Positions 14,183 through 26,706 are shown, counted from the first letter of the stretch. The stretch: 64,000 nt of DNA from an uncultured Acidobacteriota bacterium (GCA_963827655.1 CAWHCF010000020.1:1-64000); one strand, 5' to 3'. The notes: a model not told the origin generated them from the sequence alone. Made by a program: numbers and translations.

Positions 14183-14262
14183 AGCTTGTTACCACGAAGT
14201 TCCTCATGAATCCCAAGTGTGCCGGGTTTGAATGACAGCGAACTGCTGCTTTTTTGGCAAGA

Positions 14263-14349
14263 TTCTTGGTGTTTCTTCGTGTCTTTGAGTCTTCGTGGTA
14301 TTTGTTAGACAGCTCTAACCACAAAGACACGAAGACACGAAGAAACACT
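14263..14349. repeat. REP-like repeat with inverted arms; the right arm is interrupted by IS110
   Basis: ttcttggtgtttcttcgtgtctttgagtcttcgtggt ... accacaaagacacgaagacacgaagaaacaCT. Confidence 0.8.
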
Positions 14350-14365
14350 TCTATGTAGTCTTGGG

Positions 14366-14371
14366 TGTCAA
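14366..14371 (-). promoter_or_regulatory. Outward-facing -35 hexamer at the IS end (possible circle-junction promoter half)
   Basis: TTGACA on the minus strand 16 nt inside the terminal core; matching -10 not visible because the other end is lost. Confidence 0.45.
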
Positions 14372-14419
14372 GCTCCTTTTCGGTTGACCTCCTTGGTTAC
14401 GTCTGCAGCTGGTGGCTCG

Positions 14420-14600
14420 GTGTCTGATTCGGGGATAGACCCCGAATGAAACTTCTATCCGTGCCGATCGTGTAGTGATCGGACACCCAATCCTGTATTC
14501 GCGCGGTGGCGAAAAATGTGCGAGCGCTTTCGGGACGCCCCATCTAAGAACCGGTTCCAAAGCGGATACCAGTGTTTCTTTCGGGCAGTCCCACCATGCC
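14420..14600 (-). ncRNA. Putative IS110 bridge/seek RNA with target-binding and donor-binding loops; ends approximate
   Basis: Stem-enclosed loops contain AAGAAACACU and UUCUUAG (target halves) and AUAGAAG (IS terminus). Confidence 0.75.
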
Positions 14601-14620
14601 GAGAAGTTGGTTTACTCTCC

Positions 14621-14752
14621 GTTGTTTTCCTCTTAGCGGCCAAGAATTCCGGTCGGCCCGCGGGGTCAAGGCCGCGCACCGCGCGCCCAAAGGGTTTAGC
14701 CTTGACGCCGCTGGGGCAGGCCGGAGCACAATGGCCGCAAGAGGAAAACAAC
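14621..14752. repeat. ~130-bp hairpin between the transposase stop and the putative bridge RNA
   Basis: gttgttttcctcttagcggcca / tggccgcaagaggaaaacaac arms; inner gtcaaggc / gccttgac. Confidence 0.7.
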
Positions 14753-14812
14753 ACCTGAGGTTTCATAAGCTGTTTAGGTCTCGAACGTTCTCACGTTCTG
14801 GTTTCTCTCCGT

Positions 14813-15817
14813 CTAAGCGACAACTACTTTTTTCAGTTGCGCGCCCTCGGGCAGAGCTCCGGTCTCGAGGAATTTCCACATATCGATCAGCAGGCGTCGT
14901 GCCAGCGCTACGATTCCGACCCTACGGACGCGCTTGCCCGCACCGCCGAAACGCTCCTCGAACCACCGAGTGAGCTTGCTCTCGGGCTGGAAGCGCACCC
15001 AAGACCAGGCCAGCTCAATCATTACCCCCCGGACGTGACGGTTGCCGGCTTTGCTGATCCCTTGCTCACGCCTCGATTCCCCGCTCTGATATGGGGTCGG
15101 CGTCAGGCCCGCGAGCGACCCGACTTCGCGCCGGTTGTTAAATTCCCTCCAGGCGAAGAACTCTCGCACCAGCACCGAACCGCCGTTGACACCAACGCCG
15201 CGCAAAGACGCAAGCTGGCGTACCTGGTCCAGGTCCGGGTTCTCTCCCTCTCTGAGTTCGCGCCTGCGGTCCCCCTCCAGCGACAGGATCTGTCGCTTCA
15301 AAAACACCACATGCGCCCGCTCGCGCTGCAGGCGGCCTTTCAACCCCGGCAGCAAAGGCGAGCCATCCCATAACCTGATCGAGTCCAGTTTCTTGTCCGA
15401 CAGCTCCTTCCCAGGCTCAAGCCTGACCCCCTGGCTCGCCAGTAGTCCCTTGATGCGATTGGTGGTCCGCGTCTTCTCCTTCTTCAGGCTGCGCAGCTCT
15501 CGATTCAACTGCCGGTTATCTTCCTCTTCGGGCGAAGGTACTCGCACCACGCTCCAGACCCTGTGCTCTCCATACTGATACCGAATCAGCATGGTCAGCA
15601 ACTTCTCCACGTCCAGGCGATCCGTCTTAGCTCGCCGCTTTCTCCGGTTCACTTCAATGCTCGCTGAGTCCAACACCAGGTTCCGATCCGAGACTGTGTC
15701 AAGTATCGATGCAGCCAAAACCCATCACGCCCTGCTTCGTAGCAGCTCACCACCTCGGCCGTCTCCGGAAGTTCGAATCGTTTCTTGGCTGCCACGATCT
15801 CCCTCTGTACTTTTTCA
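14813..15817 (-). pseudogene. IS110 transposase/recombinase lacking its N-terminus; frameshift near 15690
   Basis: SCYEAGRDGFWLHR, KTDRLD and LAGLTPTPYQSG...GISKAGN motifs; first RuvC-like acidic motif region absent. Confidence 0.9.
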
Positions 15818-15819
15818 CT

Positions 15820-16197
15820 AAGAGCACTCTCCCATTCAATGCTTTGACTAGCCTCCGGATATGCAATGCCACAGGCTGATTTCATCAAGGCGACCACGAT
15901 CTCATCCGCTATTCGAATCACCTGGTACTCGTCCAGATCTGTCATGGTCATTTCCCGGACCGCTCGATCGGGAAGAGTCATCAAGGCCTGCCTGACAAGC
16001 TCCTGGTTCTCGGGGGAGGAATCAACTAGAAGGTCGATGTCCTCAGTGGCCCGAGCGAATCCCAAACGAATAATAGCCATGCCGCCGACCACGATGTATT
16101 TGGCACCTAACCGATTGAGCTCGCTGCAGAGATGAAGAAGATCCTCTAGCGTAGGCGGCCTGGACTCGCCTTCCTGGCCTGCATCTGAATCGACCAC
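15820..16197 (-). pseudogene. Nucleotidyltransferase-fold protein, 3'-truncated and reading in frame into the IS110 transposase
   Basis: YIVVGGMA...RATEDIDLLVD; similarity appears to stop at about IEWE. Confidence 0.75.

Positions 16198-23783: not shown

Positions 23784-26706
<2,923 letters not shown>

Follow-up and report, generated by a model that had tools for sequence, protein, structure and literature searches.

A putative bridge RNA gene in a truncated IS1111-type element inserted in a REP-like repeat of an uncultured Acidobacteriota bacterium

The element, its guides and its target

The noncoding region at 14405-14600 (minus strand) of a 64,000-nt stretch of DNA from an uncultured Acidobacteriota bacterium (GCA_963827655.1, CAWHCF010000020.1:1-64000; the whole stretch is referred to as the window) is very probably the bridge RNA (seekRNA) gene of an IS1111-type member of the IS110 family of insertion sequences (IS). 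The genome containing the window has a length of 8.18 Mb in 53 contigs and a G+C content of 59.1%. A first-pass annotation, made from the window sequence alone, had proposed a bispecific IS110/IS1111 bridge RNA 3' of the transposase, programmed for AAGAAACA-CT-AAGAA. A direct check of the window found all of the quoted strings, the target loop, and the guides in place, and the proposal is supported by the correspondence between the left donor guide and the left end of the element, a second guide allele, covariation, and a repeated target. The annotation had missed that the window copy is a 5'-truncated, frameshifted relic.

The element is read on the minus strand of the window throughout. Upstream of the RNA region, the open reading frames (ORFs) 14813-15718 and 15649-16197 overlap on the minus strand, and taken together they have the appearance of an IS110-family transposase with a frameshift, joined to an upstream ORF that is unrelated to it. 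Alignment with the four other copies in the genome, which reach 254 nt further left, delimits the IS copy to 14350-15817 (minus strand), a 5'-truncated, 1468-nt version of a 1723-nt element. The transposase remnant (14813-15817, minus strand) has lost about 50 codons at its N terminus and is frameshifted by a 1-nt deletion near 15684/15685. The RNA gene of 196 nt is followed by the right-end tail (14350-14404, minus strand), which contains the terminal CTACATAGA (14350-14358) and the hexamer TTGACA (14366-14371). The core dinucleotide CT (AG in element orientation) lies at 14348-14349 at the right-end junction, and AG flanks both ends of all four full-length copies. It also ends a repetitive extragenic palindromic (REP)-like host repeat (14247-14349), an inverted repeat whose 31-nt arms (14269-14299 and 14318-14348) are 90% complementary. 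On the other side, CT-AAGAGCAC (15818-15827), the core plus the right half of the REP target, directly abuts an interior position of the element.

Five copies of the element were found in the genome, namely, L001 (the window copy), L002 and L003 on contig C10, L004 on C44, and L005 on C37, with L004 and L005 being about 97% identical to the other three. According to the flank alignment, the 254 nt missing from the window copy are common to L002 to L005, which gives a full element length of 1718-1723 nt. The true left end, read from these four copies, is (C/T)TAG in the flank followed by ATCCTATGTAGGGCG in the element, and the right end reads CCCAAGACTACATAGA up to the boundary and AGTGTTTCTT beyond it. 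The transposase is intact in L002 and L003 (385 aa) and in L005 (384 aa), and the gene in L004 is frameshifted by a +1 insertion. The intact protein of L003 (P0001) matches the NCBIfam model NF033542, "IS110 family RNA-guided transposase," with 173.1 bits (cut-off, 140) and Pfam PF02371 with an E value of 5.4e-18. Its PF01548 score of 26.7 bits is just below the cut-off of 29, with the match starting only at profile position 42. The C-terminal domain of the intact transposase aligns with the IS621 and ISCro4 transposases in the PDB. IS110 proteins usually carry the first catalytic Asp in an N-terminal motif. The Pfam and NCBIfam matches to P0001 begin only at residue 65 (profile position 42 or 43), residues 1-64 corresponding to L003:1349-1540, and a conserved FMAFELGM stands in the N terminus at the place of the usual first catalytic Asp, for which its Glu may be a replacement.

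The element shows the features that define the IS1111 group. The DEDD (RuvC-like) and Transposase_20 (Tnp) domains are present, as judged on the intact P0001, and a long noncoding region lies 3' of the transposase gene (tnp), with 463 nt on the right (14350-14812) and about 102 nt on the left (L003). Sub-terminal inverted repeats in the expected range of 7-17 bp are formed by TCCTATGTAG, which begins 1 nt in, and CTACATAGA, which are complementary at 9/10 positions with a 1-nt gap. Insertion is site specific around a 2-nt core, with AG at both junctions in 4/4 full-length copies, all of which reside in REP-like sequence.

Two guide-bearing parts were recognized in the RNA, with 5' and 3' guides on opposite strands around the core, as is characteristic of bridge RNAs. 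Taking CT as the core, one obtains AAGAAACA-CT-AAGAA as the predicted target and CATAGGAT-CT-TCTATGT as the predicted donor (circle junction). The target arm (14532-14592, minus strand) reads GGGACTGCCC-GA-AAGAAACACT-GGTATCC-GCTTT-GGAACC-GG-TTCTTAG-AT-GGGGCGTCCC. Its left target guide (LTG; AAGAAACACU; 14571-14580, minus strand) has the same sequence as the left half of the target plus the core, and in DNA form (AAGAAACACT) it agrees with the flank at 10/10 positions in L001, L002, and L003, the flank in the window being 14340-14349. The right target guide (RTG; UUCUUAG; 14544-14550, minus strand) pairs with CT-AAGAA, and TTCTTAG fits the flank of its own copy at 6/7 positions in L001, 4/7 in L002, and 6/7 in L003; the window flank is CTAAGAG (15818-15824). 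In the donor arm, the left donor guide (LDG; ACAGGAU; 14490-14496, minus strand) corresponds to the left end ATCCTAT read from L002 to L005, and ACAGGAT fits at 6/7 positions in all four copies in which that end exists, the one difference, C for T, being recurrent. Since the left end is absent from the window and had not been seen by the first-pass annotation, this match is an independent confirmation. The right donor guide (RDG; AUAGAAG; 14452-14458, minus strand) has the sequence of the final 5 nt of the right end followed by the core, and its complement CTTCTAT lies at 14348-14354. The RDG matches at 7/7 positions in four of the five copies, the exception being L002, in which a 1-nt deletion has left CATGAAG in place of CATAGAAG.

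A second guide allele was found in L004 and L005, with the LTG AAATACCACT (RNA, AAAUACCACU) and the RTG TTCCTAG. Only five of the 196 RNA positions distinguish type A from type B; every one of them falls in the target arm, and four fall in the guides. The flank of L004 matches its own LTG (AAAUACCACU) at 10/10 positions and the other allele at 7/10, with 5/7 for the RTG, so that the LTG is matched perfectly in four of the five copies. This natural pair (AAGAAACACT/TTCTTAG versus AAATACCACT/TTCCTAG), with a fitting flank in L004, is the sole proxy for reprogramming. The two full-length type A copies on contig C10 (L003, approximately 24139-25862; L002, 27331-29053) stand in direct orientation with about 1.47 kb between them.

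The predicted target is abundant in the genome. The end of the host repeat at 14340-14349 is AAGAAACA-CT, the left target half plus the core, and the repeat gave 209 BLAST high-scoring segment pairs of at least 80 nt, a number that may count units twice, the unit being a palindrome. The repeat core CACGAAGAAACAC occurs 276 times, with about 0.2 occurrences expected. The full type A target, the 15-mer AAGAAACACTAAGAA, occurs 17 times (about 0.02 expected by chance), the 13-mer AAGAAACACTAAG occurs 85 times (about 0.2 expected by chance), and the type B site AAATACCACTA[AG]G occurs 63 times. Several of the repeat units listed hold both sites in the order AAATACCACT-AGGACACGAAGACACG-AAGAAACACT-AAG; therefore, judging from the sequences, the two RNA alleles appear to aim at two positions of one repeat family. 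Many copies of the approximately 92-nt REP-like hairpin occur at other sites of the genome at 95-100% identity; a match to MIR1027 on this hairpin in an Rfam scan was spurious (22.3 bits against a gathering score of 150). Many shorter matches to related repeats were observed in the relatives G007 and G019 (same family, same class), which indicates that the repeat family is older than this genome. No empty orthologous site was found among 30 relatives, in which the best flanking-gene match was only about 66% identical.

RNA structure and guide covariation in homologous elements

A scan of one genome per species yielded 148 relatives of the transposase. The best 80 of the 148, with identities of 50-62%, were kept, and they come mostly from metagenome-assembled genomes labelled Chloroflexota, Planctomycetota, Gemmatimonadota, Acidobacteriota, delta-proteobacteria, and others. 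The 3' region is conserved as DNA in 39 loci (nhmmer, E <= 0.001). In A2, a MAFFT alignment of 33 sequences made without fitting to the structure, RNAalifold predicted the outer stem and the hairpin of the target arm and the hairpin of the donor arm. A seven-helix structure on A2 has 84.6% of its cells paired, and 28 of the 44 pairs change on both sides; 0/500 shuffles reached the observed values, and slid controls were 33-45% paired. From 5' to 3', the RNA consists of the closing helix P1 (78.5% of A2 cells paired), the target arm with its outer stem (87.1%) and hairpin (91.3%), the long-range helix P2 (82.0%), whose 3' strand adjoins that of P1, the small hairpin P3 with UCGC/GCGA (93.1%), the donor arm with its hairpin (98.5%), and the 3' hairpin P5 (54.1%). 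A model-fitted alignment of 75 distinct rows, which by construction leans to the structure, has 89.5% of cells paired and 38/44 pairs covarying. The fold check suggested by the first-pass annotation agrees with this structure, in that the single-sequence fold of the 196 nt (z score, -3.71) recovers P1, the target arm, P3, the donor hairpin, and P5. Conserved secondary structure with covariation, the other hallmark of bridge RNAs, is accordingly seen here. G-U pairs are frequent, and many of them fit only the transposase-sense strand (for example, UG occurs 35 times at columns 7/287), which indicates that the RNA strand is the transposase strand.

These pairing patterns bear on the alternative that the conserved 3' region works as DNA, with protein-binding or DNA-pairing sites such as sub-terminal repeats or decoy targets, and that the apparent guides are mere kept copies. 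Compensatory changes in seven helices speak against it, as do the frequent G-U pairs, which are tolerated on one strand only and point to selection on RNA. So does the layout, which is that of the tested IS621 and ISEc11 RNAs (PMC11208160, PMC11187229), with a 5' guide that is the same as one target strand and a complementary 3' guide. In its favor, what the guide segments contain is flank and end DNA, copied or complemented letter for letter; the right end, too, with its CATAGAAG and TTGACA, is conserved at the DNA level; and neither the promoter scan nor the RNA-library contigs gave direct RNA evidence. Action as DNA alone is considered very improbable.

A covariance model (R1) was built from the A2 alignment and the seven-helix structure, and it scored 125.4 bits for the RNA gene at 14405-14600. 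The RNA was found in 82 of the 83 sources searched, from which eight duplicates (L001, L006-L010, L027, and L075) had been left out; L087 gave no match. Wherever a locus encodes a homologous transposase, the RNA is downstream of it and on the same strand; a second, inverted RNA copy is present in both L026 and L050. In its own genome the model matches only the five IS copies, and no solo RNA modules were detected by this search. Other, more distant IS110-family transposase genes are present on contigs C50, C53, and C49, the open frames on C50 and C53 being identical, 461 aa long, and below the NF033542 cut-off; the model found no RNA match beside these genes. A near-perfect hairpin of 134 nt (14613-14746, minus strand) separates the RNA from the stop codon of the transposase. 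By BLAST, its occurrence is confined to this genome's five IS copies, and in the homologous loci checked, which do not have it, the RNA starts about 50-60 nt past the end of the protein match. The hairpin may be an inserted palindrome or an RNase III-type processing signal.

The guides covary with the flanking DNA across genomes. For the right junction, the RDG 6-mer of the same element served as the locator; it placed the junction in 63 distinct loci, and 14 loci were unusable for want of the motif or of enough downstream sequence. In a test with one locus per distinct LTG (n = 50), the LTG was reverse-complemented and compared with the junction; the longest common substring averaged 5.90 for own pairs and 3.30 for other pairs, a value reached by 0/20,000 permutations. 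Matches of at least 7 were obtained in 16/50 own pairs and 20/2450 other pairs, and many matches start exactly after CATAGA(A) (L063, L064, L049, L061, L069, L081, and L085). To locate the left junction, the core had to be exact and the 7-mer predicted from the LDG had to be present with no more than one mismatch. There, the six non-core bases of the RTG matched the left flank at 3.91/6 positions for own pairs and 1.93/6 for other pairs, and again 0/20,000 permutations reached this value. The test of guide/flank covariation that the first-pass annotation had called for has thus come out in its favor on both sides.

The permutation results, together with the allele-specific 10/10 match in L004 and the 17 genomic copies of the predicted 15-mer, make it extremely unlikely that the region is an ordinary 3' untranslated region or terminator of the transposase mRNA whose flank matches arose by chance, although a terminator-like hairpin does lie within the region at 14540-14522 and the long 134-nt hairpin stands upstream.

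Further correspondences were noted among the homologues. The left-end variants ATCCTAT, ATAATAT, ATACTAT, AACCTAT, ATGCTAT, and ATTCTAT go with matching LDGs, a co-variation that is not independent, since the left end was found through the LDG. The ATAG predicted from the left end is replaced by ACAG in many LDGs. The core positions of the RTG and RDG and the right end read CG, not AG, in L041, and the right end and the RDG are both ATGGGAG in L069. Between subgroups, the core shifts by one base within the LTG segment. Many homologues have kept CATAGA(A)G and GCTTGACA in their right ends, and TTGACA lies 16 nt from the right end inside a conserved GGAGCTTGACA motif, both at 14366-14371 and in the homologues. 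By analogy with ISEc11, TTGACA could be the -35 box of a circle-junction promoter; no convincing -10 hexamer to pair with it was seen in the two end sequences, which were read by eye and unjoined.

The donor arm departs from the structure proposed by the first-pass annotation, in which the donor loop was closed by an outer stem CGAAT/ATTCG. In that register only 34.8% of cells pair. In the register fitting most homologues 63.1% pair, which was equaled by 63/500 shuffles for pairing and 98/500 for the covariation score, and the stem is not supported. Its strands are instead taken up by P3 (95% paired and covarying) and P5: changes of the GCGA strand to GCGU or GCGC are accompanied by changes of the upstream strand of P3, and ATTCG pairs with CGAAT within hairpin P5. 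The donor guides therefore have a hairpin on either side, within P2, and no covarying stem closes a loop around them. One speculative view, which is rather unlikely to be right as a whole, is that the soil scaffold represents a structurally distinct class of bridge RNA. The donor guides would then sit in a multi-helix junction in which P3 and P5 could re-pair into a closing stem, and the C-for-T mismatch and the non-CT core bases of the LDG would act as a switch or brake on donor recognition, for example, in balancing excision and insertion. Separately, the two alleles would divide the two sites of one REP family between them, with the dead copy being kept as a guide source in trans.

The guide/DNA complementarity, the covariation in this genome and in the homologues, the fold, the target abundance, and the CT core at both junctions are observed here; recombinase binding, a circular intermediate, and the chemistry would follow by analogy with IS621 and ISEc11. 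On this basis, the element would move as a circle in which the right and left ends are joined across the 2-nt core CT (AG on the transposase strand), with a predicted junction that reads CATAGA of the right end, AG, and ATCCTATG of the left end. In complex with the DEDD/serine recombinase, the RNA would pair with four DNA segments. The 5' arm would read the chromosomal target, with the LTG AAGAAACACU pairing with the strand complementary to AAGAAACA-CT and the RTG UUCUUAG pairing with CT-AAGAA. The 3' arm would read the circle junction, the LDG ACAGGAU representing the left end and the RDG AUAGAAG representing the right end plus the core. Recombination at the core would then place the element in one defined orientation inside the REP-like hairpin repeat. 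The expected target of the type B guides is AAATACCACTAGG.

Several findings weigh against the identification as a bridge RNA gene. Within the genome, the RTG matches are imperfect, at 4-6 of 7 positions. The LDG carries the recurrent mismatch, and its bases at the expected core position (UG in this element) are unlike CT. The first-pass annotation had held that copies at sites unrelated to the guide would count against its proposal. L001 to L004 all lie beside perfect LTG matches; L005 matches its own LTG at only 6/10 positions and that of the other allele at 8/10, with 6/7 for the RTG, and its right flank (AGTGTTTGATCGGG) leaves the repeat consensus right after AGTG. Later rearrangement, off-target insertion, and insertion guided by the RNA of the other allele are possible causes of this misfit. 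Among the homologues, the own-junction match of the LTG is only 3-4 nt long in 15 of the 50 distinct guides, and the left junction was found in only 23 of 73 loci, about 4 of the 23 (L037, L057, L078, and L085) being without the conserved CTATG and probably false. Unlike those of IS621, the donor guides are without an enclosing covarying stem, and no family in Rfam 15 matches the RNA. As for expression, a scan for sigma-70-like promoters in 14300-15000 found none, and the window copy no longer has the left end, the expected place of a native or junction promoter. In soil RNA libraries from three studies, contigs span 14341-14865, 14348-14652, and 14335-14585 at 93-99% likeness. Their differences within the RNA gene cluster in the LTG (14575, 14577, 14578, and 14580), which shows presence in RNA libraries and further guide variants in relatives; being strandless and end-less, and with DNA carry-over possible, the contigs speak for presence only, and stretches that they do not cover, such as 15762-15817, are not evidence of anything.

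State of the window copy

The window copy sits in a true target with both target halves present, since CTAAGAGCAC (15818-15827) is the exact continuation after AAGAAACA in 10 other copies of the repeat. AAGAGC is also the commonest 6-mer after AAGAAACACT (17/150). The first-pass annotation had read 15817/15818 as the far junction of the element. It was right about the flank, which is the true target half; the boundary itself is not the natural left end but a truncation point, from which exactly the left 254 nt of the element have been lost. In the full-length copies the internal breakpoint reads AACCT followed by TGAAAAAG, which by eye resembles neither target nor donor, and a guide-like internal site was rejected on this ground as the cause of the exact 5' truncation. 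One possible origin is abortive excision followed by one-sided degradation. Another, by analogy with what has been proposed for a truncated ISPpu9 module (PMC12288879), may be a deletion inside the circle before integration.

Judging from its sequence, the window copy should be unable to move on its own, because its left end is missing and its transposase gene is broken. Whether its RNA gene is a relic or a source of guide RNA in trans is about evenly balanced. Slightly short of an even chance is given to the window RNA gene being only a fossil, functional RNA being made only by the intact copies on C10 and C37. The left end and about 50 codons are gone, the frame is shifted, no promoter-like site was found in 14300-15000, and three intact copies exist elsewhere. 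Against this, the window RNA is 100% identical to that of the intact type A copies, whereas the coding part has gained the 1-nt deletion and two substitutions. Moreover, IS621 bridge RNA is stated to work when supplied in trans (PMC11208160), and the host ORF 15649-16197 reads straight into the element, so that transcription of the dead copy by read-through is possible. This host ORF (minus strand) enters the truncated transposase frame without a stop codon, which yields a chimeric ORF of 182 aa.

Relation to known bridge RNA systems

The bridge RNA of IS621 has a length of about 177 nt. It was reportedly described by Hiraizumi et al. in 2024 as well (PMC11208158). The present locus offers a fully readable natural bridge-RNA system: the four guide/DNA pairings, the core, the repeat, and the fold are all legible in the sequence, and about 50 naturally reprogrammed relatives are available for checking them. 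It contributes a specific, well-supported guide/target pair, a scaffold common to soil phyla, two alleles in one genome, and an intact RNA gene in a dead copy. With two alleles for two positions of the same REP-like repeat, a single genome would show natural retargeting. The long guides (8+2 and 2+5) of this IS1111-type scaffold and its many natural target variants are also material for the comparison and engineering of bridge recombinases. The first-pass annotation had supposed that the guide/target pair and the scaffold might be uncharacterised; the mechanism, first described in 2024, is not new. Earlier publications already cover the RNA guidance of IS110/IS1111 elements to their targets, the location of the RNA downstream in IS1111 elements, and the targeting of REP sequences, and bridge RNAs have been predicted in 93.0% of the IS1111 elements in ISfinder, in the right end (Durrant et al. 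2024, PMC11208160). The ISEc11 seekRNA belongs to the IS1111 family with a guide RNA region 3' of tnp (Siddiquee et al. 2024, PMC11187229). ISPpu9 and ISPpu10 of Pseudomonas putida are REP-targeting IS110-family elements (PMC12288879), ISPpu10 also appearing in Fig. 6 of Durrant et al. (PMC11208160), and work on excision and directionality in this class has been reported (PMC13626964).

As in IS621, a single RNA has its target part 5' and its donor part 3', with guides on opposite strands on either side of the core CT, and its length of 196 nt is similar to the approximately 177 nt of the IS621 RNA. The LTG, RTG, and RDG pairings include the core, as stated for IS621 (PMC11208160). However, the RNA is located 3' of the transposase here and 5' in IS621, and the guides are longer (LTG, 8+2; RTG, 2+5) than the nine-base LTG and four-base RTG of IS621. 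Both arms are enclosed here by the long-range helices P1 and P2, the donor guides lie between P3 and P5 with no covarying closing stem, and the LDG bases at the expected core position differ from CT. The two transposases align over the C-terminal domain only (E = 3.3e-07).

The element resembles ISEc11 in the RNA region 3' of tnp, the sub-terminal inverted repeats, the presumed circle junction, and an RNA that matches both target strands, as described for that element (PMC11187229). The same text gives a minimal active seekRNA of 82 nt, in contrast to the conserved unit of 196 nt here, a comparison made by description. It also describes a -35/-10 junction promoter, whereas the present element has the conserved TTGACA with no -10 box that convinces by eye.

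Like ISPpu9 and ISPpu10 as portrayed in PMC12288879, the element occupies a fixed position in a palindromic repeat of the REP/BIME (bacterial interspersed mosaic element) type with AG at both ends. It likewise has multiple copies, including one with a truncated tnp, a form that in ISPpu9 and ISPpu10 is put down by that source to deletion in a minicircle followed by integration at a REP site. The host repeat is a different one, and the element is presumably unrelated in sequence to ISPpu9 and ISPpu10. The ISPpu9 bridge RNA is described there as preceding tnp on a long transcript, in contrast to the downstream RNA of the present element. The element further differs from ISPpu9 and ISPpu10 in the placement of its RNA, all five matches in this genome lying within IS copies and none in a solo module.

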